Under the pieces are notes generated by a model. The model had not been told where the DNA came from, made no database searches, and worked only from the letters and a program-made list of their open reading frames with translations. The translations under genes and the position numbers were made by a program. A DNA stretch of 51,134 nucleotides from a virus. Taxonomy: Duplodnaviria; Heunggongvirae; Uroviricota; Caudoviricetes. The stretch is from the IMG/VR virus record IMGVR_UViG_2724679172_000007. The stretch is one strand, 5' to 3'. This document shows positions 8,446 to 50,104 of the stretch, piece after piece (position 1 is the first letter of the stretch; every line of letters starts with the position of its first letter).

Positions 8446-9267
8446 TTAATAATGGTTAGCCATCCATTCAGATCTAATTGATGGGATAAACTCTCTATTG
8501 AGAAAGGGGACGTACAGTGTGGTTGTCACATCTGCACCCTCCTTAGCGTTTTTGCAATGTTGCGGAGGCAGGATCAGTCGGCTTGAGCCTCTCTCAATAG
8601 ACATTTTCAGGCCGTGGCGTAGGTCTTTTTGCATAAGCTGTATGCGAGCCACAAGCGGGGTAAATTCGGTTTCAAGCGCCATGCTTTCAATGATGTCAAA
8701 GCGTCGGTTAGCGGCCTGCGTGAAGTCCTCCGGATCGTCTTCAAGCGCCGTGCATAAAGCGAGTTCAGCAATTCGCATCCGTGCTACGCCAGCACTGTAT
8801 TCGGGAGTTTTCATATCAGGAAGTGACGCTCGCATTCGTTCAAGGAGTTCCGCGCCTTTCCCGGTTAATGGTTTAAGTATCCAGTCAGTTGGTACTCCAT
8901 TTACTGGTACGTTGGTTTTCACGTAAGGAGGTACAGTGAGTATTTCTACTGTTTGGGCCAGGTCGCTCAGGTTAATATCTGCATGATGCGTATTACCGCA
9001 GTGACTGCACTCATAGGAGTAGGTCATTACTGCATCGGGGCGCGAATTAACAAATATCCACCAAAGAGCAGTTCTGCGGTCCTGAACTGTCCAGTTAGCA
9101 CTGTCGTTAATTTCACCATCCTGCATAGAGTTAAGGTACTCTGTAGTCGTTGCCTCATCTTCTGCCGGGTTCAGGTCAGAATATTTCAGCGCATCCTTCA
9201 CGGTAGGGGCGTGGAACTGAATTTCTGTCTCAGGATGGGAAGGCAATGGGAATTTTGGAATGTTCAA
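8446..9267 (-). CDS. Phage morphogenesis protein (hypothetical; Cys/His cluster CSHCGNTHH)
   Basis: 273-aa ORF immediately upstream of the tape-measure-like gene on the same strand. Confidence 0.4.
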   Translation of the reverse strand: MNIPKFPLPSHPETEIQFHAPTVKDALKYSDLNPAEDEATTTEYLNSMQDGEINDSANWTVQDRRTALWWIFVNSRPDAVMTYSYECSHCGNTHHADINLSDLAQTVEILTVPPYVKTNVPVNGVPTDWILKPLTGKGAELLERMRASLPDMKTPEYSAGVARMRIAELALCTALEDDPEDFTQAANRRFDIIESMALETEFTPLVARIQLMQKDLRHGLKMSIERGSSRLILPPQHCKNAKEGADVTTTLYVPFLNREFIPSIRSEWMANHY

Positions 9268-27900: not shown

Positions 27901-27938
27901 TTTGTGTTAGAAAATACATATTAATTATCTAACACAAA
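27901..27938. promoter_or_regulatory. Pair of inverted operator-like sites in the rdgC promoter region
   Basis: tttgtgttagaaaat (27901-27915) and atctaacacaaa (27927-27938) in opposite orientation, same motif as at 18021, 40195 and 45445. Confidence 0.45.
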
Positions 27939-29584: not shown

Positions 29585-30352
29585 TCACCCCATAGATATC
29601 GAGGTTTCGGTAATAATACGTTTTGCGTCCAACTCCCATGCTGTGATCACGTCTGTAATCACACTTATCGGCGCTTGTGTGGCATAAATACGCTCTTCTC
29701 CAATTGGTGCTGAAACATCCGTAAAGCCGACTTCTTTGGCATCCTGTATCGAGCAAATCAGCGGGACCGGGACACGAACAAGGTGAGTGGTTGCTTCAAA
29801 TTGTGTACCTGTCATCAGGCGAAGCCGTGCGCCCAGCGAATTACACATCAGACTCATGGTCGCTTTATCAGTTGCCATTAACGTAACGTCATACGTCAGA
29901 ATGGCCTGGGTGTATTCCAGTTCTGCTAAAGGCATTCCGGTATCCGGTTCGCAAAAACTGGCTACTTTTTTGCGGTCAATCTGCTGATCATCGTTGATAT
30001 AATTGATATCCATAGTGCGTGAGATATTGACCAGGGGGAGAGCATCCCGGTTAATGTTCTGGTTTTCAGGTTTTCTCCCTTGCCCGGCATTTGCGCGACG
30101 AACTGCTTTAAGAAACTCGATCGCATTGTCGAAACGGGCCACATAGACACGCTCTGCTGGTGGACGATTCAGGAATGACGCAAAGCGTTTTTCTTCCGGC
30201 GCGGGGGCCACCAGTAAGATATCAGAAAAGATATTGCTGATTAGCGTAGCAAACGCGTTATCCACGTTTTCAAAGCCCGTGGTCTGGAATTTTCCTGTGC
30301 GTGAGGTTTGCCATTCACCTGTTCGCGCCAGGAGGGTTTTATTTGAAGTCAT
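29585..30352 (-). CDS. Phage structural protein (hypothetical)
   Basis: 255-aa ORF with SD GGAGTGA; in an operon with the baseplate hub/spike genes. Confidence 0.3.
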   Translation of the reverse strand: MTSNKTLLARTGEWQTSRTGKFQTTGFENVDNAFATLISNIFSDILLVAPAPEEKRFASFLNRPPAERVYVARFDNAIEFLKAVRRANAGQGRKPENQNINRDALPLVNISRTMDINYINDDQQIDRKKVASFCEPDTGMPLAELEYTQAILTYDVTLMATDKATMSLMCNSLGARLRLMTGTQFEATTHLVRVPVPLICSIQDAKEVGFTDVSAPIGEERIYATQAPISVITDVITAWELDAKRIITETSISMG

Positions 30353-38738: not shown

Positions 38739-39048
38739 ATTGGCAGCCTCCTTTGACTAAGTTAAGGAGCTACCGCGTGAGGTTCCAATCTCAATGGCGG
38801 TAGCACTGACTGGGTTGGAACTACCGGCGTCAAAGGGAACCGGCCTGCCTTTCGGCAGCCCAGCCAGCACTACCATTGATCTCTGAGCTAAACGCTACGT
38901 ATGGCTGTGCGATGGCATGACACAAAAAAGACGCTTTCGGCGTCTGTGTCGCCTTTGACATTATCCGGGGTTCCAATCCCGGCACCCGTTTTTCTAAGGT
39001 GCCGTAGAAATATACCCCACGATAATGCCAGGGCGCAACAGTCAGTAT

Positions 39049-39216: not shown

Positions 39217-39548
39217 TTTTGACACCCCCGACGCGAGTAAAGAATGCAGATTATCGCGTGAGTGGTGGACGACGAGTGATGGGAAAAGACTGTAGTTGTT
39301 CATAGTGTAGTGACTCCTTGCTTTCGGAGCCGCCATCGACTGTTCCACGGTCTGGTGGCGGCGCAATAAAGGCTGGAACACCGTGAGTCAACGGGGGCTT
39401 TTCAGCCACCTATATTGCACCGCCATAGGTATGACGGCGGCAATAATACGAAAAACTAAACAGTTTGTCTCAAAAAGTTGACCGGTGTGCCAATCGGTAG
39501 TGAATGTACATCGGAGAAATTTACAATTCAACTTAAAATGTTAGAAAA

Positions 39549-40127
39549 TTAATTTATCAATTCAATCGCCATCTGATACAACGTCATTTCATCGGCATTG
39601 TGCCGCATGAAATCTGCTTTTCCGCCTATTTTTCCGTCAGCATGAACAGGGACCAGCCAGGGATATTGTTCTCGGACCTCGGCTGGCGCTGCGTACTGGT
39701 GGTGCCATTTACACAAAGGGAGGACATATTTATGCGCGTTCTCTGCCGTTCTCCCGAAGATATGGTGCAGGGATACCACTGGGCTATGTTGCCCGTGAAT
39801 ATGGCAGGCAATGCAGGGGAGAGCACCGATAGCGGTCTGTATCCGGCGTTCATCGGCTGTGAGTGATCTGCCTTTCAGGCCGCGTGACGTGCGTGTTTTT
39901 TTGGACGGAGCGGATACAGCTTTATCTTTTCTCCGCTGTTCATATTGCTTTGCTTTTTCATTTTTCTTTTGCCGATATTCAGGCGATGCGGCCTTTTCTC
40001 TCGCTCGCTGCTGCTGGCGTTGAGCTTGTTGAAGGCGCTTTGCCCTTTGTTCCTCTCGCCAGGCCGGGTCAGCCAATTTTTGCATGGCTTTTTGTCTCTG
40101 TTTCTCCCAATAACTCTGTTTCTGCAT
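39549..40127 (-). CDS. ref: HNH endonuclease with basic N-terminal region (P1 Ref-like recombination enhancement function)
   Basis: 192 aa; Lys/Arg/Gln-rich N-terminal half, then an HNH-like core (ALPCIACHIHGQHSPVVSLHHIFGRTAENAHKYVLPLCKWHHQ); flanked by operator-like sites. Confidence 0.5.
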   Translation of the reverse strand: MQKQSYWEKQRQKAMQKLADPAWREEQRAKRLQQAQRQQQRAREKAASPEYRQKKNEKAKQYEQRRKDKAVSAPSKKTRTSRGLKGRSLTADERRIQTAIGALPCIACHIHGQHSPVVSLHHIFGRTAENAHKYVLPLCKWHHQYAAPAEVREQYPWLVPVHADGKIGGKADFMRHNADEMTLYQMAIELIN

Positions 40128-40194
40128 GATGGCAGTCTCTTACTTTTCAACGATTTTTCTATGATTGATCAAAATGGTTAGATATTCAAAATTG

Positions 40195-40209
40195 ATTTTC
40201 TAACACAAA
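40195..40209. promoter_or_regulatory. Operator-like site (ATTTTCTAACACAAA) in the divergent ref / DUF4406 promoter region
   Basis: Exact 15-mer shared with the other dispersed sites. Confidence 0.4.
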
Positions 40210-40399: not shown

Positions 40400-41023
40400 A
40401 TGGTGAAACGTGTTTTGAAAATTTACATCGCGGGGCCGATGACTGGTTATCCAGACTACAACCGTGCGGCGTTTAATGCGAAAGCGAGCGAGCTGATGTC
40501 TGAAGGGCATATCGTTCTGAATCCAGCTGTGTTACCTGGTGGCCTTTGCCAGAGTGAATACATGGATATTTGCCTGGCAATGGTGCGTTCTGCTGATGCG
40601 ATCTATCTGCTCAATCAATGGGAAGAATCGGTTGGTGCTCGCGCAGAGCACGCGCTGGCTGAAAAGCTGGGGCTGACTGTAATTTATGAGTCACAAACCA
40701 ACATTGAATGCCAGGTTGCTCCGCATATTTACCGTGAACTGGTAAATGCGTTACGTGATGTTGCTATTGAATGTCACGGCACGGATCAGCTTCGCGCCCG
40801 CTTAAGCAAAACCCTTTCCAGTTACCTGTCTTTGGTTGAAGGATACAACCTCCGGCAGCGGAGAATGGTCAAATTAATCACGCGTTTATCTCAATCCCTG
40901 GCAAATGCCGAACCAACTAATCCGCTACCTAATGACGCAATGAATTATCTGAAGTCATGCGGCGTTGTTTCTGAAGATGCAGTTCGTTTTGTGGAGTTTA
41001 TGTCTCAGAGGATGTCAGCGTGA
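40400..41023 (+). CDS. DUF4406-like (nucleoside 2-deoxyribosyltransferase-like fold) protein with C-terminal extension
   Basis: N-terminus VLKIYIAGPMTGYPDYN matches the signature of the DUF4406 family as recalled; start set at the ATG at 40400 after a GGGGAAA SD. Confidence 0.45.
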   Translation: MVKRVLKIYIAGPMTGYPDYNRAAFNAKASELMSEGHIVLNPAVLPGGLCQSEYMDICLAMVRSADAIYLLNQWEESVGARAEHALAEKLGLTVIYESQTNIECQVAPHIYRELVNALRDVAIECHGTDQLRARLSKTLSSYLSLVEGYNLRQRRMVKLITRLSQSLANAEPTNPLPNDAMNYLKSCGVVSEDAVRFVEFMSQRMSA

Positions 41024-41337
41024 GCTGGCGGGGATGGGGAAGGGCGGAAATCATGATACTCCGCCAGTGCGCCGGGACTATGACAGTCGTGAGTATTGGG
41101 AGGCTGATCGGGCGTACCGGTAGTGCTGTCAGAACCAAAGCGCGGCAACTGCGGATCTGCATGATTCTGAAAGGAGACTTTCACCCGTCAGCCAAATACC
41201 GGCAGGGCGATATAGAACTGGCACGGCAGCTTCATCGGTGTGGTGTTCCCCGCCGTGAGATCGCAGAAAAACTCGAAATGCCCTTGAGCATGATTAATCA
41301 GTACGTTTATTTCGAAAGGAGAGTACATGAAGTCTGA
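41020..41337 (+). CDS. Small putative DNA-binding protein (HTH-like)
   Basis: 105 aa, start overlaps the upstream stop; two helix-turn-helix-like segments. Confidence 0.35.
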   Translation: MSWRGWGRAEIMILRQCAGTMTVVSIGRLIGRTGSAVRTKARQLRICMILKGDFHPSAKYRQGDIELARQLHRCGVPRREIAEKLEMPLSMINQYVYFERRVHEV

Positions 41338-41815
41338 AGGTTTAACGCCAGCACAACTGGCAGAGCGTAACGCTGAGTATGTAACGGAAATTTCCCGACT
41401 TGAGAAAGAACGCTCGGCGCTGGCGGCGGAGAATGCTGGGCTGAAACATGCAATGGCTGTAACTCTTGAGCATGTGTCGGTCACGGATGCAGGGCAGGCC
41501 GGAGTTGCTGCAATGATTATCAACGATGCCCTGCACCACAGCGAAACTCCAGCCACCGATGCTTTTCTGGCTGAAATTCGTGCGGAGGCTCGCAACGAGG
41601 GGATTAACTATACCGCAAGCCGTCTTGCTGCTGCTTTCAACCACGGATTTATCAATAAGTCTTTACGTGAAGTTTTCGACGTTACACGCATGATTCTGTC
41701 AGCGAAAGAAGAGTTGGCTAATGAACCGCACCCGATTGATGGCCTGTCCGGTGAATATGCGGAGAAATCCCTTGAAGAATGGGCGGAACAGATTCGCAAA
41801 GGAGCTGACAAGTGA
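41327..41815 (+). CDS. Ea22-like family paralogue (shares central module with the 46781..47401 gene)
   Basis: Central segment ALAAENAGLKHAMAVTLEHVSVTDAGQAGVAAMIINDALHHSETPATDAFLAE is nearly identical at protein level to the paralogue at 46781; C-terminal EQIRKG tail. Confidence 0.45.
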   Translation: MKSEGLTPAQLAERNAEYVTEISRLEKERSALAAENAGLKHAMAVTLEHVSVTDAGQAGVAAMIINDALHHSETPATDAFLAEIRAEARNEGINYTASRLAAAFNHGFINKSLREVFDVTRMILSAKEELANEPHPIDGLSGEYAEKSLEEWAEQIRKGADK

Positions 41816-42222
41816 AGAAGATGATTTTTGTCGCGGCATTGTTGGTGAATATCCAACAAGTGCATGCTTCAGCAGCTATTGTAGCCTCTACCGCCGCGAC
41901 TACGGCTGCTGTAGCTGCTGCGAACTCTGCGAATATCGCAAACCAACAGGCACAGCGTGCTGCTAATGCATCAGCCAGCGTTCACTCAATCACCATTAAG
42001 AGCAGTAAGCAAAATCTGGGATTCATAACGTGCGGCACGCGTTCTAATGAAGCTGTAGGTTCACTTGGATGTACGGTATATGGGGGTAGTGAGAATAGAG
42101 AAATTCCATGGAAAACGTGGCCCGGATACGTTCTTGGCTCGAAGCTCCCGGCCAGTTATGAAGTAAACGCCGTATCGTTTGATCACTATAACGGCGTGGC
42201 AACGGTCTATTTTGCATATTGA
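41812..42222 (+). CDS. Small secreted protein (signal peptide)
   Basis: Signal-peptide-like N-terminus (MKKMIFVAALLVNIQQVHASAAIVAS); start overlaps the upstream stop. Confidence 0.4.
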   Translation: MKKMIFVAALLVNIQQVHASAAIVASTAATTAAVAAANSANIANQQAQRAANASASVHSITIKSSKQNLGFITCGTRSNEAVGSLGCTVYGGSENREIPWKTWPGYVLGSKLPASYEVNAVSFDHYNGVATVYFAY

Positions 42223-42230
42223 GGCTCCGC

Positions 42231-43031
42231 ATGAAATTCTCCAAATTTTCTGAGTTGGTGAATCGTATTTTGTTGAATCGTATTTTGTCCAACAACCACA
42301 GCCATCGTCGCGATATGGATGTAACGATCGTTGTTCATTCGCCTGGCAGCATTGGTTCAACACCCTCAGTTGAGGTTCAGTCAATTCACGCTGGTTTTGA
42401 TTGGGATTCCGGGAAAGTGCTGATTTTCCCAGCACAGCCACTGACCACGCTAACACCAGAACAGATTACTGATATTACTGATAGTGTGCGCAAAGGTCAG
42501 TCCTGGCACGCATATCAGGAATACAAGAAGCATCAAGAGCAGTTGGAAAAATTATCGATTGAACTTGATACCGCAAAACAGCGCATTGCAGAGCTGGAGG
42601 GTAATCGCGCGGCGCTGGCTGCGGAGAATGCGAGACTGAAGGCGATATGTGAGGATCGCCGCACGTTCATTATGAATGGCGTGCAGCTTGGTTTTATCAA
42701 GGTGCCAACAGTGGAAATAGATCCAGCTCTTGAAACAATTCGTATCGCCCTATCACCACAAAAAACCACTCCTGCGACCGACACTTTCCTGGATGAAGTG
42801 AAGACTGAAGCACGCAAGGAGGGCGCTTACTTTGTGGCGAATAGAATGCTGGCTGCCTGGGAAGCTGGTTTTATTGATGATACTGCGAAGAACGCCGCGG
42901 ATATTGCCCGGATGATTCTTACCTCTACTGAGTTTATGGCTAATGCGCGGGAAGGCGATTTTGACCGCTCATTCTCTGATGGTGTTCTCGAAGATATCGC
43001 TGAACAGCTTCGCAAAGGAGGCAGCCAGTGA
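42231..43031 (+). CDS. Ea22-like family paralogue
   Basis: Start at the ATG at 42231 after a GAGG SD; central coiled-coil (LEKLSIELDTAKQRIAELEGNRAALAAENARLKA) and C-terminal AEQLRKGGSQ tail shared with the family. Confidence 0.45.
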   Translation: MKFSKFSELVNRILLNRILSNNHSHRRDMDVTIVVHSPGSIGSTPSVEVQSIHAGFDWDSGKVLIFPAQPLTTLTPEQITDITDSVRKGQSWHAYQEYKKHQEQLEKLSIELDTAKQRIAELEGNRAALAAENARLKAICEDRRTFIMNGVQLGFIKVPTVEIDPALETIRIALSPQKTTPATDTFLDEVKTEARKEGAYFVANRMLAAWEAGFIDDTAKNAADIARMILTSTEFMANAREGDFDRSFSDGVLEDIAEQLRKGGSQ

Positions 43032-43669
43032 GCGAGCTTTACTATCAGACGTTACGTGAACGTTTTTCACCGAAACCAGCGCCTAAATGCTCTGTTTGTG
43101 GCGAGGAAATGTCAATGCAGCGCATATCTGGATCACATGTTGTTTATGCCTGTTCCGGCATGGAGGACGACGGATGCTTCAAAACTGGACGAACTTATGC
43201 TGACGAGCATTACAAAAAATCGCGCATAACAGTAGTTGATGATAGCGATCCTGATGTGATTGAACTGCTGGAAGAGAACATGGAGATGGCTCTAACGCTT
43301 GAGAAGCTGCGTGTTGAGCTGGAGGCTGCTAAACAGCGTATTGCCGAATATGAAAGCAATTGCGGGGCGATGGTGGCGGAATGCCAAAGCAAAAAAGCAG
43401 CACTTGAGGCAATTCTTAGCCATTGCCCAATTAATCATCCAGATATAGACATCGCATGTATAGCGAACATCGCTCATAACGAATTAGGCGAGGCGAAAAG
43501 CACTACATCTAAGGCATACCTTGTAGAAATACAGGCACAAGGGGTGGAGGCATTCGCTTTGACGATGCGCGATACCGGAGATGATCCATTTTTTGATTCC
43601 GTTGCTTCTGCTTGCGCGGATGCAGCTGATAGGTTCGCTGACCAGCTTCGAAAAGGAGGCAAACAGTGA
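43028..43669 (+). CDS. Ea22-like family paralogue with N-terminal Cys-rich zinc-ribbon-like segment
   Basis: GTG start overlapping the upstream stop (GTGA); LEKLRVELEAAKQRIAEYESN coiled-coil; C-terminal ADQLRKGGKQ. Confidence 0.45.
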   Translation: MSELYYQTLRERFSPKPAPKCSVCGEEMSMQRISGSHVVYACSGMEDDGCFKTGRTYADEHYKKSRITVVDDSDPDVIELLEENMEMALTLEKLRVELEAAKQRIAEYESNCGAMVAECQSKKAALEAILSHCPINHPDIDIACIANIAHNELGEAKSTTSKAYLVEIQAQGVEAFALTMRDTGDDPFFDSVASACADAADRFADQLRKGGKQ

Positions 43670-43914
43670 GTAATACCGCACGACTACAGCTTGGTTTTTC
43701 ACCGCTATCAAAAACCATCGTGTTGGCAAAAATGCGTGACTTAGGGGATGGAACAAAACGTCGTGTCGGCAATGATCGCGGTCGTGATGTAACCAACGAG
43801 GCCGCACAACTCGTTTGGCATCTAGTCATGGCTGAAGGCGGTGAAATTAATTGGGAGCTGGATGATGGTTCTCGCATGGTATTAAAGGCAGAAAAGCAGG
43901 AGCCACCACAGTGA
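43666..43914 (+). CDS. Hypothetical small protein
   Basis: 82-aa ORF translationally coupled to its neighbours. Confidence 0.35.
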   Translation: MSNTARLQLGFSPLSKTIVLAKMRDLGDGTKRRVGNDRGRDVTNEAAQLVWHLVMAEGGEINWELDDGSRMVLKAEKQEPPQ

Positions 43915-44219
43915 ATATCGACACCACGATAACGATCGATACGGCCCTAAATACCGGTCTGGCACTTCTCGGTTGGCTTTACATCATGTCCCGTACCTGG
44001 CGATGGCTGGGTTCCATTTTCCTAAAAGAGTGGAAAAAACGGCGCAAACAGGAACTACGCCAGAAGGCATTAGAAGCGTTCTATGACGCATTTGAACTTA
44101 GCCGCATTGAACCAGGCACAACAGCCAGAATAGCGATAAAAGGCGACCTGATGATAGTGATGTTCAGACAGGAGAAACCAAATGACAGAACAGACGATGA
44201 CAAATCGCGAACTTGTTGA
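43911..44219 (+). CDS. Hypothetical small membrane protein
   Basis: 102 aa with a hydrophobic N-terminal segment (LNTGLALLGWLYIM); the C-terminal part carries the EPGTTARIAIKGDLMIVMFRQEK module. Confidence 0.35.
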   Translation: MNIDTTITIDTALNTGLALLGWLYIMSRTWRWLGSIFLKEWKKRRKQELRQKALEAFYDAFELSRIEPGTTARIAIKGDLMIVMFRQEKPNDRTDDDKSRTC

Positions 44220-44406
44220 TGCCGCGATTGAACTTGCTGGCGATTTTTATTCCATGATGGGTTACGAGCATCGACCTGGTTTTAAGTATTGGGAGTCACC
44301 GCATCCGCAAGAACAACAGGTGTTTGAAATGGCCTGCCGTGCTTTTGAGGTTATTCGCGGTTCTGATGTGATGGAGGCCGTTGCCGACTTGGAGGATGAA
44401 GAGTGA
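44182..44406 (+). CDS. Hypothetical small protein
   Basis: 74-aa acidic ORF. Confidence 0.35.
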   Translation: MTEQTMTNRELVDAAIELAGDFYSMMGYEHRPGFKYWESPHPQEQQVFEMACRAFEVIRGSDVMEAVADLEDEE

Positions 44407-44714
44407 GCATCATTAAAGAAATGCCGGTAGAACGTGATGAATATGGCTGCTGGACACATCCGGAGTATGAGAAGTTTTGCGCAGGTCGTGAATATATTTC
44501 CACTGAGGAATTTGACGCCTGGATGAAGGAAAATAATCTTCAGTGGACTATTCGCAGTATGGATGAAGATGATTTTGATCTGGACGCAGCTGGTCCCGAT
44601 ATTGCCGCCTGGGAACCGGAGCGACCAGAGGGTGAAGGCTGGTTTGTTGGCTCTATTCATGACACTGAAGATGGTCCAGTTTGTATCTGGCTGCGGGAGA
44701 AGGTTGCCGCATGA
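44403..44714 (+). CDS. Hypothetical small protein
   Basis: 103-aa acidic ORF; its stop overlaps the phosphatase start. Confidence 0.4.
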
Positions 44715-45403
44715 TCCAGACTATGCATGAAGTGAATTTATATAGCCGTATTGATGGTTCTGGCTACAGAAACATATGGGTTGTTGGTGATCTGCATGGT
44801 TGCTACACCAGACTGATGTCCGAACTCCATCGTGTGGATTTTGACCCGGCGCAGGATTTACTGATATCGGTTGGCGACCTTATCGATCGCGGTACTGAAA
44901 ATGTCGAATGTCTGGAACTATTGCAGATGCCCTGGTTCAGGGCAGTAATGGGGAACCATGAGCGGTTGATGCTTGATGCGTTAAGTCCTGATGGCAACGT
45001 GAATAACTGGCTAATTAATGGCGGACAATGGTTCTTCATGCTGGGCACTGATCAGGAAATATTAGCCAAGGCGCTGGTGGAGCTGGTAAAGCGTCTGCCA
45101 TATATCATTGAGTTGAACACCGGGCATGAAACTATCGTTATAGCCCATGCCGACTATCCAGGTGGAGAGTACCAGTTCGGTAAGGATGTGTCGTTTTTTG
45201 ATGTTGTCTGGTCGCGCAGTCGCGTCGGTGATTCGATAGATGGCATTGGTGGAGAAATCACAGGCGCAGATCGCTTTATCTTTGGGCACACACCGGTACG
45301 AAGACCAAAAGCATACTGGAATCAGCACTACATAGACACGGGCGCGGTTTTTTGCGGAAATCTGACGCTAATGCAGGTGAAGGGAGGGCAGCTTAAAGTC
45401 TGA
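44711..45403 (+). CDS. Serine/threonine protein phosphatase (lambda PPase/PrpA-like metallophosphatase)
   Basis: Metallophosphatase motifs GDLHG, GDLIDRG and GNHE; about 230 aa; ATG overlaps the upstream stop (ATGA). Confidence 0.75.
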
Positions 45404-45444
45404 TCAAATCATTTACGCACTCAAATCACGTTAGAACATTGATT

Positions 45445-45460
45445 TTAGTTTTCTAACATA
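45445..45460. promoter_or_regulatory. Operator-like site (TTAGTTTTCTAACATA) with a partial inverted copy at 45430-45436
   Basis: Same motif family as 18021, 27901 and 40195; lies between the phosphatase gene and the 45501 gene. Confidence 0.35.
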
Positions 45461-45500
45461 TTATTTTACCGATCGGAACAAAACAGAGTCGGTATGCATT

Positions 45501-46496
45501 ATGAGTGCAATAATCACCCCATATGTCGTAAATGAAACTGGTGTGGCTGTCTTTCCTGTAGATAAGCCCACCAGCAATTACATCGGCGCAGGACGCCGTT
45601 TTCTTATATCCCCATTGCCGCGTGAACAGGCTGAAAACACCCCTGATGGTGTCGTTGACCTGAATTATTCACTGGTTGCCAACCAGTCACTGGCACCCTT
45701 TTTTCAAAGTGAGCGTGTATTTAACGCGTTAGGTGGTGAGGATTCTCTCGTTCACTGGGTTAGCACCAACATTCACGATTGCCAGGCGCATGATAAGCGC
45801 GATTGCAGCCACCAGCTAACCACCCATTTCTATAACGGTTCTGCCGTTCGCCTGTGCTGGAAGCATGATGCGGAATACATGATGAAGGGGTACAGCAAGC
45901 TGGAAGACCAACTGTCACTGAATCGCGCCAACTGGGTTATGAACTGGGCTGCCAGCGAGTTAAAACTTCCGCCAGAACGCGATCTGAGCATGGTTGAACT
46001 CACCTTTTGGGCTATTCGACGCAATCTTAAAGACGAGCTACCTGATGAAGCTGGTCGCATTGCATTTTGTCAGCCAAAAACTGAAATCCCTACCGGTACG
46101 CTGAAAGAATCAGATATCACCTGGGAGCGCAGTACGCGCGAGCTGGTGGACATAACCGCAGAGCAGATCGTCAACCTGTCTGTAGATGAGGATTCTGGCC
46201 TCCTATATATGCGCCGTCCAAAAACCTTACTCGGAAAAAGCCCGGCTTATCTCCGGTTTGTGGTGTCTCGCCCGTGTGTAGGCTGCGGCGGCAAGGTTAA
46301 TCACCCGTTCATGTACCGCGCTCGCTCGTTAAACGAACACGACCGCTGGGCTGTTCCTCTTTGCGATGAATGCGCCAGAAGCGCGGAAATTGATGTCCGG
46401 GCATGGGAAAAGGCACATGGCATACGCCTCTACGTTGCCGCCAACCAGCTTTTCGATTTCGCCATCGAGCGCGGAGTGATCACGTTTAATAACTGA
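45501..46496 (+). CDS. Hypothetical protein with C-terminal Cys cluster (CVGCGG ... CDEC)
   Basis: 331-aa ORF downstream of an operator-like site. Confidence 0.45.
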   Translation: MSAIITPYVVNETGVAVFPVDKPTSNYIGAGRRFLISPLPREQAENTPDGVVDLNYSLVANQSLAPFFQSERVFNALGGEDSLVHWVSTNIHDCQAHDKRDCSHQLTTHFYNGSAVRLCWKHDAEYMMKGYSKLEDQLSLNRANWVMNWAASELKLPPERDLSMVELTFWAIRRNLKDELPDEAGRIAFCQPKTEIPTGTLKESDITWERSTRELVDITAEQIVNLSVDEDSGLLYMRRPKTLLGKSPAYLRFVVSRPCVGCGGKVNHPFMYRARSLNEHDRWAVPLCDECARSAEIDVRAWEKAHGIRLYVAANQLFDFAIERGVITFNN

Positions 46497-46592
46497 TTGG
46501 GATAAAGGCATGAGCATGGAGCCAGGCGGCACCATCCGCATTGCTACAAAGGGAGGCCTGGTAATCATGATGTATCGGAAGGAGGAAGCCAA

Positions 46593-46784
46593 ATGAATAA
46601 AGCCTCACCAGCAGAGTTAAGAGCAAGTCTAGAGATGGCGCATAGCCTTGCTCAAATTGGAGTCAGGTTTGTACCAATTCCAGTTGAAACAGACGAAGAA
46701 TTTCAAAGGTTAGCGGCATCTGCAGCACAAAAGCTGGAAATCATGGCAGCGAAAGCAGAGAAAGCGGAAGGAGGCAGACAGTGA
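46593..46784 (+). CDS. Hypothetical small protein
   Basis: 63-aa ORF preceded by SD GGAGGAAG; stop overlaps the next gene's start. Confidence 0.35.
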   Translation: MNKASPAELRASLEMAHSLAQIGVRFVPIPVETDEEFQRLAASAAQKLEIMAAKAEKAEGGRQ

Positions 46785-47401
46785 GTGAAACTAACTATCA
46801 GGAGTTGCGTGAAGCGGCGCAACAGGCTTCGCAAGGAGAATGGATCGCATACATTTTGCCGGGTGAAAACGGTACTACATATCCGGTACATACGTCTGAG
46901 GGTAGGCATTGTGGATTCTTTATGGTCTGGCCTGGCAATGATGGACTGAGGAATGCTGGCGCCAATGCCCGTTATATCGCTGCTATCCCACCAAAAGTTG
47001 CGTTGTCACTACTGGATGAAATTAAACGTCAGGAGGACTCAAATATTGATGCTATGTGCCGTATTGCAGAGCTTGAAACTAATATCGCGGCGCTGGTGGC
47101 AGAGAACGCCGGACTGAAACACGCAATGGCCGTAACTCTTGAGCATGTGTCGGTAACGGATGCAGGGCAGGCCGGAGTTGCTGCGATGATTATTAATGAT
47201 GCCCTGCACCACAGCGAAACGCCAGCTACCGACGCTTTCCTGGCGGAAGTGCGGGCGCAGGGGGTGGATATGGCTCGTAACGCGATGATTGATTTTGTTG
47301 ATGGTGAAGTTGGGCCAAACAAGAACGTTCCGGGGCTGATTAGAGGCGCAGAGATATGCGTAAGTATTGCTGAACAGCTTCGCAAAGGAGGCAACCAGTG
47401 A
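46781..47401 (+). CDS. Ea22-like family paralogue
   Basis: N-terminus MSETNYQELREAAQQASQGEWIAY resembles the Ea22 N-terminal region; central module shared with the 41327 gene; C-terminal AEQLRKGGNQ. Confidence 0.5.
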   Translation: MSETNYQELREAAQQASQGEWIAYILPGENGTTYPVHTSEGRHCGFFMVWPGNDGLRNAGANARYIAAIPPKVALSLLDEIKRQEDSNIDAMCRIAELETNIAALVAENAGLKHAMAVTLEHVSVTDAGQAGVAAMIINDALHHSETPATDAFLAEVRAQGVDMARNAMIDFVDGEVGPNKNVPGLIRGAEICVSIAEQLRKGGNQ

Positions 47402-48042
47402 GCGAAATTAACTATAAAGAACTGCGCGAGGCGGCGAAACAGGCAACGCAAGATGAATGGGTAGCATATATTTTGCCGGGTCATAACGGCATTTATCCTG
47501 CGCGCACGTCTGAGGGTAGGCATTGCGGATACTTTATTGACTGGCCTGGCGTCTGTCAGGGGCGGGAGAGCATCAGCATGAGCATCAGAACCTACGCAGT
47601 GAATTGCAATGACGCATGGCTAAACACCGAAGGTGATGACATCTCCGGCTCATACGTTAAGTACAAAGACCATCAGGAAGTGGTTGCCGCTCTTGAGGCC
47701 AAGTGCGCGGCGCTGGCAGCGGAGAATGCGGTAATAAAGTCTGCAATTCCAGAACCACGGGATATTGAGGACGACAATGACAATATGGATGACGTATCTC
47801 TTGCTGAAGATTTCGGGTTCAATCATGCAATAGAACGGATGAGGAGACGGATTCCTGAAACTCCGGTCACCGACGCTCTCCTGGCTGAAGTACGTGCGCA
47901 GGCGTTTAATGACCTTTGCTCGGTGTTCGTTAAGGACGCGACGGTTGCCGGGCTGGACGATGGCGACATCGTTACGGTGAAAGAAGCGACGGACGCCCTG
48001 CTGCATTGTGCGGAGCAGCTTCGCAAAGGAGGCAACCAGTGA
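47398..48042 (+). CDS. Ea22-like family paralogue
   Basis: N-terminus MSEINYKELREAAKQATQDEWVAY; C-terminal AEQLRKGGNQ; GTGA-type overlap with neighbours. Confidence 0.5.
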   Translation: MSEINYKELREAAKQATQDEWVAYILPGHNGIYPARTSEGRHCGYFIDWPGVCQGRESISMSIRTYAVNCNDAWLNTEGDDISGSYVKYKDHQEVVAALEAKCAALAAENAVIKSAIPEPRDIEDDNDNMDDVSLAEDFGFNHAIERMRRRIPETPVTDALLAEVRAQAFNDLCSVFVKDATVAGLDDGDIVTVKEATDALLHCAEQLRKGGNQ

Positions 48043-48662
48043 GCAAGATTGATTATCAAAAGCTTCGTGAAATCGCTGAAAAAACAAAAATTGCTGGTGA
48101 AGCACCTGTAATGCCTTTCGATCAGCGAATTAATGCGCTTAACGATTTTATGAAGCACTTTTCGCCAGATATCGCGCTGGCATTGTTGGATGAACGGGAA
48201 AGAAACCTGCAATACATCAAAAGCCGCGATCAGGAGAACGAGGATATTGCGCTAACGGTAGGGAAGCTGCGTGTTGAGCTGGAAGCAGCAGAGAACAACC
48301 TTATTGATAGTGAATGCCATGTTGCTGAACTGGAAGAAGCGCTACGCGATAAGCAGGCGTTACTTGAAGCCTCAGAAAAGCGCATAGCAGAACTGGAAGC
48401 ACGGGAAATAAAACCAGCCAAAGGCGAAGTTCTTGTCGTTGTATCTGGTTTGACTGGTTGCGGAAAAAGCGCCATTGCCGGGGAAATAGAAATCGCGATG
48501 AAGGCTATTGGTGTACCGGTTAAGTGGACTAATGGCGATGCAGAAAAGCGCATGACTGGCGCTGACTGGCTGACTGCGATTGAGATGTACAAACCAACTG
48601 TGCGCATCGTGGAAGTTAATGTGCCACGCGCCGCTGGCATTCGCATCAAAGGAGGTGAGTAA
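48040..48662 (+). CDS. Ea22-like protein
   Basis: LLDERERNLQYIKSRDQENEDIALTVGKLRVELEAAE and the C-terminal AAGIRIKGGE closely match lambda Ea22 as recalled; start assigned to a GTG overlapping the upstream stop. Confidence 0.55.
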
Positions 48663-48834
48663 TGCGTGTGGCATGTATCGGCTTGTTACCGTACCCGACT
48701 CGTTTTTGGGCTTCTGCGCTAATTGCAAAGCCACATGTCCTGATGGCTGACAACATCATCCCGGCACCAAAGCGCCGCCATACCGGTATTGCATCGGCAC
48801 GACGAGCAGCAAAGAGACGCAGGAGAGCAAAACG

Positions 48835-49023
48835 ATGAAAAACCGTAAAGCAAAGATTCTGTTAGTTCGTAGAAACGCTCCTGGCGTCTGGCAGTGGGTG
48901 AGACTCAGCAACCGACGGATGGGGTTAATGAAACATTACGGGATGATGGATTGTGGTTTTTGCAAAAAGCCCAGCGCGGCGCAAAACCGCTGGAAAAACC
49001 ACTTGCGTACTAAAGGAGAGTGA
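48835..49023 (+). CDS. Hypothetical small basic protein
   Basis: 62-aa ORF in a chain of translationally coupled small genes. Confidence 0.3.
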   Translation: MKNRKAKILLVRRNAPGVWQWVRLSNRRMGLMKHYGMMDCGFCKKPSAAQNRWKNHLRTKGE

Positions 49024-49024
49024 T

Positions 49025-49234
49025 ATGGCTATCGCTGCAAGTTACACCATGCATCTCTATTGTGACTGCCGTCAGTGCACGGAAGGTGTATATCCAGTGC
49101 CAGACTTCGGTGAGTATATAGGTACGTCATGGGCTGGCTGTGCAAAAGAGGCGCGCAAGGATGGCTGGCGAATAAGCAAAGACAAAACGCGTGCTTTTGC
49201 GCCCGGGCATAAAGTTTTGAGGGTTAACAAATGA
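49025..49234 (+). CDS. Hypothetical small Cys-rich protein
   Basis: ATG preceded by SD GGAGAG; stop overlaps the start of the next gene. Confidence 0.35.
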   Translation: MAIAASYTMHLYCDCRQCTEGVYPVPDFGEYIGTSWAGCAKEARKDGWRISKDKTRAFAPGHKVLRVNK

Positions 49235-50061
49235 CCACTATAACCAAAGAGCGACTACTGACAATCAAGCAGTGGCGCGAAACATACGGACCTGGTAGCA
49301 ACGTTGTACTGCCAGCAGAAGAAGCGGAAGAACTGGCGCGGATTGCGCTGACATCGCTGGAAGCAGAGCCTGTTGGTGAAGTTTCAGAGAAGCAACATGG
49401 CCTTGTTATGGATGGGACGGTAGACCTTGGCGGGAAATCAACTTATCGCATCATTAAGGGAGAAAAAGCGATGAAGTTGTTGCCGTTGGGGACGAAGTTT
49501 TATACCGCACCGCCAGCGCCGATAACGCCGGAGGCCATTGAAAACGCAATTGAATACATCCGCAGTATCGCTTTTCACATCGATGAAGACGATTACCACG
49601 GCAAACATATTGCGTATTTCATGCGACAAGCATTGGCCTGGCTGGAAGGGCATTCATGCAGCAACGACAGACTGGGTAAAGCCGATAATCAACCAGTACG
49701 CGGCAACCAGACTGCCGAATCCAATCGCGGTAATGAGTGGACCGGCAATCCTGATATTGATAACGCCATCATCATGCTCGATCGCATAGATACGCTGGAA
49801 AATTGCGATGATGACCGTATTGAGGCTGTTAAGGCCGTTTTGCGTAGACTGGCTGGCAACCATCCGGATTTTCCGGATAGTTCCCAACAATCGCCCAAGA
49901 AAAGCGTAAAAACCACTCTGGAAAGAGGCTATCTTGAGGCCGCATTAAAGATTAAGCCGGGCCATACGCTAGGCGTCATTGATGCCATGTTGGTTCATGA
50001 AATGGCGAAGGCTTTATTGCCGCTGGTGGCTGATAAAATTCCGAATAAAGCCGATATCTGA
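49231..50061 (+). CDS. Hypothetical protein
   Basis: 276-aa ORF followed by an intrinsic terminator. Confidence 0.45.
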   Translation: MTTITKERLLTIKQWRETYGPGSNVVLPAEEAEELARIALTSLEAEPVGEVSEKQHGLVMDGTVDLGGKSTYRIIKGEKAMKLLPLGTKFYTAPPAPITPEAIENAIEYIRSIAFHIDEDDYHGKHIAYFMRQALAWLEGHSCSNDRLGKADNQPVRGNQTAESNRGNEWTGNPDIDNAIIMLDRIDTLENCDDDRIEAVKAVLRRLAGNHPDFPDSSQQSPKKSVKTTLERGYLEAALKIKPGHTLGVIDAMLVHEMAKALLPLVADKIPNKADI

Positions 50062-50072
50062 TCACCATGCTA

Positions 50073-50104
50073 AAATCCCCTCAATTCACAGAGGGGATTT
50101 TTGT
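50073..50104 (+). terminator. Rho-independent terminator
   Basis: aaatcccctc-aattcacag-aggggattt hairpin followed by a T-run. Confidence 0.5.

Follow-up and report, generated by a model that had tools for sequence, protein, structure and literature searches.

A stretch of phage DNA in which six open reading frames with similar C-terminal ends stand among a phosphatase gene and small conserved genes raises the question of what unites the six, how they are expressed and where the array came from. The whole stretch analysed (the window, 51,134 nucleotides) is, by sequence identity, a D6-like (P1-family) phage-plasmid: it shows 94% identity to phage D6 across 56% of the region, and ~92-kb plasmids of E. 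coli and Salmonella likewise match. We consider it likely that the region is an accessory operon of this phage-plasmid, with Ea22 cassettes reshuffled at short islands and a dual-coding C-terminal tail supplying the next cistron's initiation signal.

Gene content and operon layout

The six genes (A to F, Table 1) are all present on the + strand, and five of the starts given in a preliminary description are right; the sixth gene starts at 48039, at the GTG of a GTGA overlap, and a start at 48040 gives 12 in-frame stops. A profile search for Ead/Ea22 domains (PF13935, cut-off 27 bits) was positive for C, D, E and F and negative for A and B, both without the N-terminal head: A has no Pfam match and B no Pfam Ead_Ea22 match. 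The proposed array of Ea22-like paralogues with shuffled modules stands at the level of the family, with four of the six genes inside the strict Pfam definition. All six are homologous beyond low complexity, the point on which the proposal could have failed: BLASTP with SEG and composition correction gave E-values of 2e-38 (A-D), 3e-37 (D-E), 4e-22 (A-B), 1e-8 (C-D) and 1e-6 (C-F), and the top score among 600 shuffles was 28 bits.

The N-terminal domains differ, as had been described. A has almost none and consists of a coil, a module common with D and a long helical C-terminal domain; B shows its own ~118-aa domain, a long helix and a long helical C-terminal domain; C has a MSELYYQTLRE head with a Cys-rich CxxC...C...C motif, followed by a coil; D and E have one head in common; and F carries a lambda-like head and stalk with a different C-terminal domain containing an invariant GLTGCGKS motif. 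B has 4339 homologues, called hypothetical protein save a few named ead/Ea22-like family protein, and F at least 8000.

Seven relatives show a common backbone with three to five Ea22-like ORFs each, versus six here, located in two variable slots. The exact arrangement of the window was absent from every database record searched, the top record covering 86%. The conserved backbone comprises DUF4406, HTH protein, DUF4752, Ser/Thr phosphatase, DUF968 and lambda-Orf63 homologue, with the 105-aa HTH gene as conserved left border of slot 1 and the DUF1382 gene as left border of slot 2. The Ser/Thr phosphatase label is sound (Metallophos; PrpA/PrpB-like NF008516, 4e-82, under the equivalog cut-off), and the D6 counterpart is annotated 'similar to P1 gene ppp'. 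The 136-aa protein between A and B has no Pfam match and is not Ea22-like; its GTG start overlaps the stop of A.

Most gene boundaries overlap, in agreement with the preliminary description: of 19 junctions surveyed from 40403 to 50061, 12 are 4-nt ATGA/GTGA overlaps, three are other overlaps (1, 11 and 38 nt), two are gaps of 1 and 8 nt, and two are gaps of 96-97 nt. The latter (97 and 96 nt) bound the DUF968 gene. The single chain with the phosphatase that had been proposed holds for A to C only, the phosphatase being its final gene; D, E and F, three of the six genes, form a second chain past the two gaps. The overlapping stops and starts fit translational coupling and do not demonstrate the stoichiometric co-expression that had been read from them.

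The operator-like motif has four matches in the window versus 0.21 expected, occurs at the matching place in D6 and six plasmids, and has an inverted copy beyond ref, at 39539-39555. A possible promoter, TTGATT-N16-TAATAT, read by eye and under the scan threshold, overlaps the candidate operator 5' of the ~10-kb + strand operon; the promoter scan found no sigma-70-type site on the + strand from 40400 to 50070. The operon is probably under repressor control and would be expressed early. Judging from the P1 and lambda counterparts that have been tested, it would be dispensable for plaque formation.

Table 1. Positions in the window of the genes, shared segments and candidate signals of the operon
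Feature	Coordinates	Strand	Evidence
Candidate repressor operator AAATTGATTTTCTAACA	40189..40205	+	Motif matches; conserved position; putative function
HTH DNA-binding protein, 105 aa	41020..41337	+	phrog_323 transcriptional regulator 3e-24; annotated as DNA-binding protein in relatives
Ea22-like paralogue A, 162 aa	41327..41815	+	phrog_614 1.5e-57; phrog_368 4e-41
A copy of 59-codon module common with D	41414..41590	+	BLASTN; dS/dN
136-aa protein, signal-peptide-like N-terminus	41812..42222	+	phrog_8805 7e-86
Ea22-like paralogue B, 266 aa	42231..43031	+	phrog_368 1e-60; phrog_6026 for residues 1-118
B/C junction island: tail codons, AAAGGAGG Shine-Dalgarno, GTGA stop/start overlap	42995..43031	+	BLASTN islands; breakpoints
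Ea22-like paralogue C, 213 aa	43028..43669	+	PF13935 49.6 bits; phrog_368 1e-52
Four small conserved genes, overlap-chained	43666..44714	+	Pfam; gene order kept in relatives
DUF7446 gene	43666-43914	+	Pfam
DUF4752 gene	43911-44219	+	Pfam
Two hypothetical proteins	44182-44406 and 44403-44714	+	Overlap chain
Ser/Thr protein phosphatase (P1 Ppp / PrpA-PrpB / lambda-PP type)	44711..45403	+	PF00149 1.8e-15
DUF968 / HNH protein (P1 PdcB-like)	45501..46496	+	PF06147 3.5e-44; D6 annotation
DUF1382 protein, lambda Orf63 homologue	46593..46784	+	PF07131 1.5e-29
Ea22-like paralogue D, 206 aa	46781..47401	+	PF13935 73.3 bits; phrog_368 4e-55
D copy of 59-codon module common with A	47087..47263	+	BLASTN; dS/dN
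D/E junction island: tail, Shine-Dalgarno, GTGA	47365..47401	+	Sequence; BLASTN islands; breakpoints
Ea22-like paralogue E, 214 aa	47398..48042	+	PF13935 88.2 bits
E/F junction island: tail, Shine-Dalgarno, GTGA	48007..48042	+	Sequence; BLASTN islands; breakpoints
Ea22-like paralogue F, 207 aa	48039..48662	+	PF13935 80.4 bits
F/next-gene junction attcgcatcAAAGGAGGTGAgTAATG	48640..48664	+	Sequence; identical junction in many prophages
58-aa gene after F	48662-48838	+	ATG overlaps F stop
Intrinsic-terminator-like hairpin, 11 bp then T run, closing operon	50072..50101	+	Sequence scan

The C-terminal tail and the next start codon

A QLRKGG-type tail, earlier attributed to all six genes, is found in five: A ends in AEQIRKGADK, B in AEQLRKGGSQ, C in ADQLRKGGKQ, and both D and E in AEQLRKGGNQ, so that B to E share A(E/D)QLRKGG(S/K/N)Q. 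F ends in AAGIRIKGGE, a lambda-Ea22-type tail (AGIRIKGE in lambda) that keeps just the KGG/Shine-Dalgarno core. The shared tail had been read as a protein feature; its KGG core is mostly the following gene's ribosome-binding site, translated in frame. QLRKGGNQ with its stop is encoded by cttcgcAAAGGAGGcaaccaGTGA, in which the K-G-G(E) codons (AAAGGAGG) double as the Shine-Dalgarno sequence for the cistron that follows, 6 nt 5' of the GTG that overlaps the stop. AAAGGAG(G) closes every Ea22-like gene here, 6-7 nt from the next start; at the end of F, a 10-nt Shine-Dalgarno sequence lies within the final codons.

This association extends beyond the window. Among the IMG/VR viral contigs fetched, 122 exact instances of the junction pattern were found, and an ORF runs from the GTG in 122 of 122 cases (at least 34 codons in 120). 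A sample of 64 other distinct Ea22-head proteins, drawn without regard to how each one ends, includes 54 with a KGE, KGGE, NGGE or KGGxQ terminus; directly after 51 of these 54 tails comes an ORF of 30 codons or more, with ~24 different downstream N-termini. Each cassette would thus carry the translation-initiation signal for whichever cistron comes next; as the tail codons are the downstream Shine-Dalgarno sequence and the stop overlaps or abuts the start, a cassette could be inserted in a polycistronic operon without loss of expression. The dual-coding tail probably accounts for the "K/R-G-E motif of unknown significance" of the Ea22 literature (PMC7093339).

Alternatively, the QLRKGG / IRIKGE tail may be a functional peptide, a partner-binding or protease-recognition tag, with the Shine-Dalgarno match secondary. 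Its conservation on very unlike C-terminal domains and its record as a conserved motif (PMC7093339) speak for such a tag, as does its extension to ~5 codons 5' of the Shine-Dalgarno sequence (AEQL / AGIRI), for which that sequence alone does not account and which the AlphaFold2 model of B puts, at low confidence, within the final helix (residues 247-261). Furthermore, the IRIKGE tail (aaaggagaGTGA) persists in lambda ea22, where no more than a 5-codon ORF comes after it and the nearest annotated gene downstream lies ~190 nt away; this tail may be a peptide with its own role, or a relic. We nevertheless regard the tag as unlikely. Besides the real ORF directly after 51 of the 54 tails, K-to-N variants (AAC GGA GGT GAG) swap the lysine and retain GGAGGTGA, and KGE and KGGE are unlike as peptides while the spacing from Shine-Dalgarno sequence to start is constant. 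Unrelated upstream genes of these operons encode the identical signal within other terminal peptides (AEGGRQ, KQEPPQ, GKGEAS and PQEVK), the first being that of the DUF1382 gene, which likewise holds GGAGG and a GTGA overlap. Finally, tails without the signal (QLRKGVIQ, ELRTGNKQ and DAGEQNDEKP) sit at rearranged junctions. The last of these results from deletion of the 58-aa gene after F, which is missing in D6 and NZ_CP047013, with deletion endpoints in caaaGGAG / caaaGAG.

Mosaic joints and origin of the array

Nucleotide similarity between paralogues is limited to 22-67-nt islands, which are 88-95% identical, together with the head common to D and E and the A/D module. The A/D module shows a BLASTN match of 174 nt with 88.5% identity and three amino-acid changes in 58 codons; by Nei-Gojobori over a 59-codon window with five amino-acid changes, dS is 0.54 and dN 0.043 (ratio 0.08). 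Both copies are 92-94% identical to positional counterparts in other plasmids versus 88% to each other. They are confirmed as old, selected alleles and not a recent duplication, and the protein-level selection proposed for this module is borne out as purifying selection.

Breakpoints were placed where a match to relatives at 90% identity or more came to an end (27 distinct positions, not fully independent); 21 of them lie within 6 nt of islands, versus a background of 25% (binomial p = 1.4e-8). Two of the breakpoints, at 43006 and 43030, lie in the B/C junction, and three of the six outliers lie at F's own tail. In the protein alignment, a single N-terminal domain is combined with several different middle and C-terminal modules, the joins lying at the island motifs. 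Four islands would serve as recombination sites: the MSExNYxELRE head, the AALAAENAGLK motif, the TPATDAFLAEVRAQ motif and the tail/start junction. An established model explains phage mosaicism by recombination at short boundary sequences that are conserved (PMC3233612, PMC3945230). Island breakpoints are also expected from random recombination with selection for joints at domain borders, and the breakpoint test cannot separate targeting from selection because matches extend through any conserved patch.

The array would stem from phage-to-phage homologous or homeologous recombination, with reshuffling ongoing, and not from recent duplication in place. A local expansion by tandem duplication in this plasmid, followed by divergence and involving no imported alleles, could be suspected from the adjoining D, E and F with their common heads and tails and from the six copies here against three to five in each relative, but we hold it to be highly improbable: dS is 0.54 between the most similar paralogous segments, no paralogue similarity is detectable in nucleotides outside the segments named above, and for every copy a sequence of 92-99.6% identity exists in other plasmids or prophages (E, 99.6% in NZ_CP047013; A to C, 95-96% in CP157128; F, 98.6% in D6).

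Helical stalk, possible roles and comparison with lambda

The coiled-coil centre described earlier agrees with AlphaFold2 models, which predict one long helix in B (residues 76-152; pLDDT 76-90 over ~100-140) and in F (residues 43-121; pLDDT 77-88), with low confidence outside the stalk; sub-threshold Pfam and PDB matches are to coiled-coil proteins only. An Ea22-like protein would thus be a long helical stalk with interchangeable N- and C-terminal domains. Structural and family evidence pointed to no biochemical activity, and searches of PDB, PADLOC and NCBIfam gave nothing. Published work describes lambda Ea22 as a non-essential tetramer that favours lysogeny and whose C-terminal domain is variable (PMC10834534, PMC7093339, PMC10695390), and by analogy we infer that the proteins may, as oligomers, modulate the lysis-lysogeny decision or host physiology, acting through their variable end domains.

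The cassettes could also be counter-defence or host-takeover effectors whose variable ends bind host immune or stress proteins, and an arms race would then account for copy-number variation and shuffling. Their hypervariable accessory slots, the mosaic of conserved scaffolds and variable ends, the typical accessory neighbours (phosphatase, Ref, DUF4406 and a secreted protein), the probably early expression 3' of the operator-like site, and the non-essentiality of lambda Ea22 and of adjoining genes in P1 (PMC10695390) would suit effectors. This role seems improbable to us, however: the defence-related models searched gave no match, the literature search found no link of Ea22-like proteins to defence, the only recorded phenotype, a bias towards lysogeny, comes from lambda and Stx phages (PMC7093339), and published yeast two-hybrid screens identified no partner (PMC10834534).

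F is, on its alignment, a true lambda-Ea22 homologue (46% identity over residues 1-134, E-value 1e-27). The stalk of lambda Ea22 is a tetramerising coiled coil. Both variable slots are occupied by Ea22-family cassettes like those that lambdoid prophages carry in their exo-xis / ea regions, and, as a further likeness to lambda exo-xis, where orf63 is annotated DUF1382, the DUF1382 / Orf63 homologue lies directly 5' of D, E and F.

Six Ea22-like genes in a D6-type accessory operon

The window contains six Ea22-like paralogous genes (A-F), distributed in two variable slots of one operon: slot 1 contains A, B and C, and slot 2 contains D, E and F. All six open reading frames (ORFs) of the preliminary description are present, although the start that it gave for the sixth, 48040, is out of frame; the ORF begins at 48039, where its GTG forms part of a GTGA overlap. 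The 8 kb around the array match Escherichia phage D6, a P1-family plasmid prophage, with 94% identity over 56% of their length, and several hundred plasmids of E. coli, Salmonella and Shigella also match, the best matches being of ~92 kb. The D6-like plasmids with this region correspond to replicon cluster 1704. Annotations of D6 and six plasmids show a common backbone: ref on the minus strand, followed on the plus strand by a DUF4406 gene, a gene for a 105-aa DNA-binding protein, slot 1, a DUF4752 gene, two small genes, a ppp-like metallophosphoesterase gene, a pdcB-like DUF968 gene, slot 2 and several small genes. The synteny from ref to the pmgU-like gene (DUF4406, HTH protein, DUF4752, ppp-like, DUF968) and the high nucleotide identity identify the block of the window as an accessory operon of a D6-like (P1-family) phage-plasmid. 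The two small RNAs found with Rfam, a C4 antisense RNA directly upstream of ref and an isrK-like sRNA, are the putative immI (c4/icd/ant) immunity region of the P1-family element. In three related plasmids, an IS200/IS605-type TnpB gene is located directly upstream of the phosphatase gene.

Coordinates of genes, RNAs, repeats and segments (positions in the window unless another record is named)
Feature	Position	Strand	Remarks
17-mer inverted pair	27905-27934		AAATTGATTTTCTAACA type
C4 antisense RNA	38793-38880	-	Rfam
isrK-like sRNA	38924-39002	-	Rfam
17-mer AAATTGATTTTCTAACA, inverted copy	39539-39555	-	far side of ref
17-mer AAATTGATTTTCTAACA	40189-40205	+	overlapping with a putative promoter, TTGATT-N16-TAATAT, directly ahead of the operon
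A	41327-41815	+	ends AEQIRKGADK
A/D module, copy in A	41415-41588		174 nt
Gene for 136-aa protein	41812-42222	+	between A and B
B	42231-43031	+	ends A(E/D)QLRKGGxQ
C	43028-43669	+	ends A(E/D)QLRKGGxQ
Head of C	43028-43200		CxxC...C...C pattern
DUF7446 gene	43666-43914		two genes downstream of B
ATTGATTTTAGTTTTCTAACA	45438-45458	+	gap before the DUF968 gene
D	46781-47401	+	ends A(E/D)QLRKGGxQ
A/D module, copy in D	47088-47261		174 nt
E	47398-48042	+	ends A(E/D)QLRKGGxQ
F	48039-48662	+	ends AAGIRIKGGE
C-terminal domain of F	48420-48662		~85 residues
Region of the 58-aa gene deletion	48640-48840		compared with the two deletion sites below
Deletion site in D6 (L001)	~8240-8290		58-aa gene missing
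Deletion site in D6-like plasmid L007	~8550-8600		58-aa gene missing
Terminator-like hairpin	50072-50101	+	strong; after the last gene
TnpB gene, NZ_CP032875 (L005)	4132-5340		upstream of the phosphatase gene
End of lambda ea22, NC_001416 (L008)	29820-29850		junction intact

The same arrangement was absent from the collections of phages, plasmids and complete E. coli genomes, the best record showing 86% coverage and 96% identity. Among 5426 complete E. coli genomes, 3274 contained pieces of the array, mostly in the chromosome, where the matches are lambdoid prophages. Several genes of D6-like plasmids already carry the RefSeq label "ead/Ea22-like family protein", and the array is a new, larger-than-usual instance of a kind for which hundreds of phage-plasmids from E. 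coli and Salmonella, and thousands of prophages, have annotated examples.

Four of the proteins passed the Pfam model PF13935 (Ead_Ea22, IPR025153), which extends from the N-terminal head into the beginning of the stalk and has a gathering threshold of 27 bits: C (49.6 bits), D (73.3), E (88.2) and F (80.4). A and B showed no match to this model at E ≤ 0.01; what they share with D and E is limited to the stalk, middle module and C-terminal domain (phrog_368 and phrog_614), and "Ea22-related proteins without the family head" is a better description of both. According to PHROGs, all six match the same overlapping families without functional annotation (368, 614, 492 and 250). Pairwise searches with SEG masking and composition correction gave matches between A and D (2e-38), D and E (3e-37), A and B (4e-22), C and D (1e-8) and C and F (1e-6), with a maximum of 28 bits in the shuffled-sequence control. 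Low complexity as the source of the similarity is excluded, because the masked matches stay strong and the shuffled sequences do not exceed 28 bits. Sequence and PHROG comparisons also agree with the earlier statement that the N-termini differ among the six genes.

The head of C shows four cysteines (Cys21, Cys24, Cys42 and Cys50), a pattern that suggests a small zinc ribbon. The 136-aa protein encoded between A and B has a signal-peptide-like N-terminus (MKKMIFVAALLVNIQQVHASA), with a match to phrog_8805 but none in Pfam; a periplasmic or surface moron, e.g., an exclusion protein, is one possible identity. P0118, a homologue of B, is a natural fusion of the N-terminal domain and stalk of B to a DUF7446 protein, and represents another deletion within the slot.

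AlphaFold2 models of B and F have a mean pLDDT of 52 and 62, respectively, and are confident only in the stalks and in the N-terminal helices of F. In these monomer models, residues 76-152 of B and 43-121 of F form a long single helix (77-79 residues, pLDDT up to 90), while both C-terminal domains are below 50. Near-matches in Pfam and PDB are coiled-coil proteins only, and searches of solved structures with single sequences and profiles retrieved coiled-coil noise (P22 gp26, designed coils); F matches no solved chain in sequence. No NCBIfam match was obtained for the Ea22-like genes, and PADLOC gave no credible one, the best (Avs2 and CARF, both 0.004) being far too weak. The C-terminal domain of F, near-invariant across homologues with different heads and stalk inserts, contains a Walker-A-like GLTGCGKS; a classical P-loop NTPase would need a larger domain, and the one of F gave no family match and no confident AlphaFold2 model.

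The C-terminal tail as a probable ribosome-binding site

The preliminary description had taken the shared QLRKGG tail as a feature of the proteins, a reading to be revised in the light of the nucleotide sequence. The terminal QLRKGGNQ and its stop are encoded by cttcgcAAAGGAGGcaaccaGTGA, whose Lys-Gly-Gly codons form an 8-nt Shine-Dalgarno sequence; the GTG of the next gene is found 6 nt after it and overlaps the TGA stop. The end of F (atcAAAGGAGGTGAgTAATG) has the same arrangement, the Orf63-like gene upstream of D, unrelated in sequence, ends in AEGGRQ encoded by gaAGGAGGcagacaGTGA, and further genes of the block carry the Shine-Dalgarno signal within a terminal KQEPPQ. At least 120 stretches of the IMG/VR viral collection contain a junction with exactly this pattern. 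In the fetched IMG/VR loci, all 122 junctions are followed by an ORF starting at GTG (120 of these ORFs have at least 34 codons), and about 88 of the downstream ORFs among the 122 junctions listed are Ea22-like heads themselves; therefore, tandem Ea22-like genes are common in prophages.

These downstream Ea22-like genes, unselected for their own tail, provided a sample of 64 distinct proteins of at least 100 aa. Fifty-four of them end in KGE, KGGE, NGGE or KGGxQ, usually encoded by attcgcatcAAAGGAGAGTGAtATG, and 51 of the 54 tails have an ORF of at least 30 codons within a few bases, with approximately 24 different N-termini. Tail variants with Asn in place of Lys retain GGAGGTGA. All Ea22 proteins are recorded to end in K/R-G-E, with a significance listed as unexplained (PMC7093339), and a ribosome-binding site goes unmentioned in three papers on Ea22. 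As judged from the sequence, the simplest explanation would be that the motif is the Shine-Dalgarno sequence of the downstream gene read in frame. Re-examination adds a simple account of the conserved K/R-G-E(G) C-terminus, and in structure-function work on Ea22 the tail should not be taken as a protein motif without controls.

The ea22 gene of lambda keeps aaaggagaGTGA though its downstream ORF has five codons, an ORF that looks like the stump of a lost cassette; the lambda tail is either a relic or a peptide that matters too. The lambda gene ends in aaaggagaGTGAgatcggttttgTAA, with the Shine-Dalgarno sequence and the GTGA junction intact. Conservation of the tail reaches a few codons upstream of the Shine-Dalgarno sequence. 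The tail CLRPNFEGKR of the C-like protein of D6 was considered as a frameshifted QLRKGG junction and ruled out, the nucleotide sequence being simply different.

Between 40403 and 50061, 12 of 19 junctions are 4-nt ATGA or GTGA overlaps and three more overlap by 1, 11 and 38 nt; the remaining ones are gaps of 1 and 8 nt and two of 96-97 nt around the DUF968 gene. The block is a putative translationally coupled operon, with 15 of 19 junctions overlapping and the Shine-Dalgarno sequence inside the upstream cistron; at the Ea22 junctions, AAAGGAGG is located 6-7 nt ahead of the start. From this overlap pattern, A, B and C belong to the chain of the phosphatase and D, E and F to a second chain. The single chain with a Ser/Thr phosphatase proposed earlier therefore holds for A-C, which are in its uninterrupted chain, but not for D-F, beyond the 96-97-nt gaps; likewise, most boundaries do overlap, but to deduce stoichiometric co-expression from them was an overreach. 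RNA folds of the Ea22 junctions revealed no structure masking the Shine-Dalgarno sequence that was either significant or conserved. A hairpin of 5 bp (GCUUC/GAGGC) over this sequence was rejected, with z-scores of −1.9 to +0.5 in four junction folds and no counterpart in A-type tails. Also rejected was a stem of 13 bp that surrounds both the Shine-Dalgarno sequence and the ATG at the F junction: it exists only with the F-type C-terminal domain, does not form in other lineages with the same downstream gene, and is probably fortuitous.

No sigma-70-like site was found inside the plus-strand block. The 17-mer AAATTGATTTTCTAACA is present in four copies in the window, against 0.21 expected, and the copies flanking ref are conserved in D6 and the six plasmids (7/7). 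It may be the operator of a D6-type C1 repressor, in which case the whole block would be turned on at induction or infection. The P1 C1 operator consensus (ATTGCTCTAATAAATTT) gave no match in the window at up to three mismatches. The operon has only two intergenic gaps of appreciable size, and one of them contains ATTGATTTTAGTTTTCTAACA, which resembles the operator-like 17-mer with an insertion of ~6 nt.

Selection and mosaic joints

The A/D module, a segment common to A and D, is 88.5% identical between both copies over 174 nt, with three amino acid changes in 58 codons. The Nei-Gojobori method, applied to windows of 59 codons (41414-41590 and 47087-47263), gave a dS of 0.54 and a dN of 0.043. 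The copy in A is 92% identical to D6 and the copy in D is 94% identical to NZ_CP032875, with cross-matches of 88%; for both copies, the segment at the same position in other elements is a closer match than the paralogous one. Purifying selection on the module, as opposed to recent duplication, had been suggested from the synonymous divergence and is confirmed by these values.

Nucleotide similarity between paralogues is limited to a few segments: the last 33-37 nt (82-95% identity), two motifs (AALAAENAGLK and TPATDAFLAEVRAQ), a part of the stalk common to C and F, the D/E head and the A/D module. In the alignment of B and its homologues, one N-terminal domain is found on several middles and C-terminal domains, joined exactly at the motifs. 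The homology and module shuffling of the array are thus borne out by the pairwise matches, by the nucleotide islands (short conserved patches at the head, two stalk motifs and the tail/Shine-Dalgarno junction, defined as paralogue matches within the window) and by this alignment. As breakpoints we took the ends of matches to D6 and the six plasmids, with a minimum identity of 90% and a minimum length of 200 nt. Of 27 distinct breakpoints within Ea22-like genes, 21 are located at most 6 nt from an island (background 25%, p = 1.4e-8), and three of the six outlying ones are at the tail of F itself. Recombination at short conserved boundary sequences is an established model of phage mosaicism (PMC3233612, PMC3945230); the coincidence of islands and breakpoints fits it, while the test does not tell targeted recombination apart from random exchange in which selection then retains intact domains.

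A 58-aa gene after F is missing in D6 and NZ_CP047013. The endpoints of this deletion are in the near-repeat caaaGGAG/caaaGAG and it yields the tail DAGEQNDEKP; the F-like ORF becomes fused to the next junction, and several database proteins also have this tail. The locus is a clean natural example in which module joints coincide with short conserved patches, within and between genes, and a convenient test bed for the boundary-sequence model and for how genes move between lambdoid prophages and P1-family plasmids. Overall, most of what the preliminary description observed is right, and its interpretation stands in homology, shuffling and selection, but not in its protein-level tail or its stoichiometry.

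Possible function and comparison with known Ea22 systems

The papers retrieved on Ea22-like proteins assign no function to them. In lambda, Ea22 forms tetramers, with a coiled coil at the centre and a C-terminal domain that is dimeric; it has no known partner, is pro-lysogenic and is mosaic in Stx phages (PMC10834534, PMC7093339, PMC8614690). Faster induction and a lower yield of lysogens on deletion of Ea22 are known only from lambda and Stx phages (PMC7093339), and lambda ea22, P1 ppp and P1 pdcB were non-essential in CRISPRi screens (PMC10695390). By analogy, the Ea22-like proteins of the array would most likely be oligomeric stalk proteins, with exchangeable end domains displayed to partners from the host or the phage and an influence on the choice between lysis and lysogeny. 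A role in counter-defence is less likely; defence-system models gave no match for the Ea22-like genes, and the literature search on Ea22-like proteins and anti-defence retrieved only general anti-defence papers. A wider proposal, which we consider improbable, is that Ea22 cassettes are a recombination-driven combinatorial system, in which the islands would be selected as crossover points where co-resident prophages and phage-plasmids would constantly swap N-terminal domains, stalks and C-terminal domains, and co-expressed paralogues would hetero-oligomerise through common stalk segments into mixed complexes displaying several end domains simultaneously, e.g., to variable host defence or stress proteins.

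Compared with D6 (orf91, orf92 and orf100) and the D6-like plasmids, the window has in common the backbone, the gene order from ref to the pmgU-like gene and the two variable slots, and the shared parts show 92-99% nucleotide identity. However, the window has six Ea22-like genes, more than D6 (three) and the other relatives (four or five), and its allele combination is in no record searched. The 4-nt overlaps and the strong Shine-Dalgarno sequences in the last codons of the upstream gene are those of translationally coupled ATGA/GTGA operons. As in the boundary-sequence (linker) model and in relaxed homologous recombination by phage recombinases, the joints are located at conserved patches on gene or domain borders, but one linker of the window doubles as a protein C-terminus and as the region where translation of the next cistron is initiated, and several others are inside coding sequence, at domain borders.

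F shows 46% identity to lambda Ea22 over residues 1-134 (E 1e-27), which comprise the head and stalk, and has the same GIRIKG(G)E tail. Its C-terminal domain does not align with lambda Ea22 except for the last 7-8 residues and shows no sequence relationship to the C-terminal domain solved for lambda; F is not a full-length orthologue. The three-part architecture of Ea22, with variable mosaic C-terminal domains, has been described previously (PMC10834534, PMC7093339), and partial or full gene duplications are on record in the exo-xis regions of Stx phages (PMC8614690), whose Ea22 variants are V1-V3. With respect to the lambda exo-xis cassette (orf60a-orf63-orf61-orf73-ea22), a homologue of Orf63 (DUF1382) is encoded directly upstream of D-E-F, and no homologues of orf60a, orf61 and orf73 were found in the block. 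Slot 2 looks like a fragment of a lambdoid exo-xis cassette, because the DUF1382 gene precedes D and F matches lambda Ea22, but the element of the window is a plasmid prophage without exo, xis or pL. Furthermore, in contrast to the Ea22 systems of lambda and Stx phages, it contains six copies, divided between two slots, where those systems have one or two; A and B are devoid of the Pfam-defined head.
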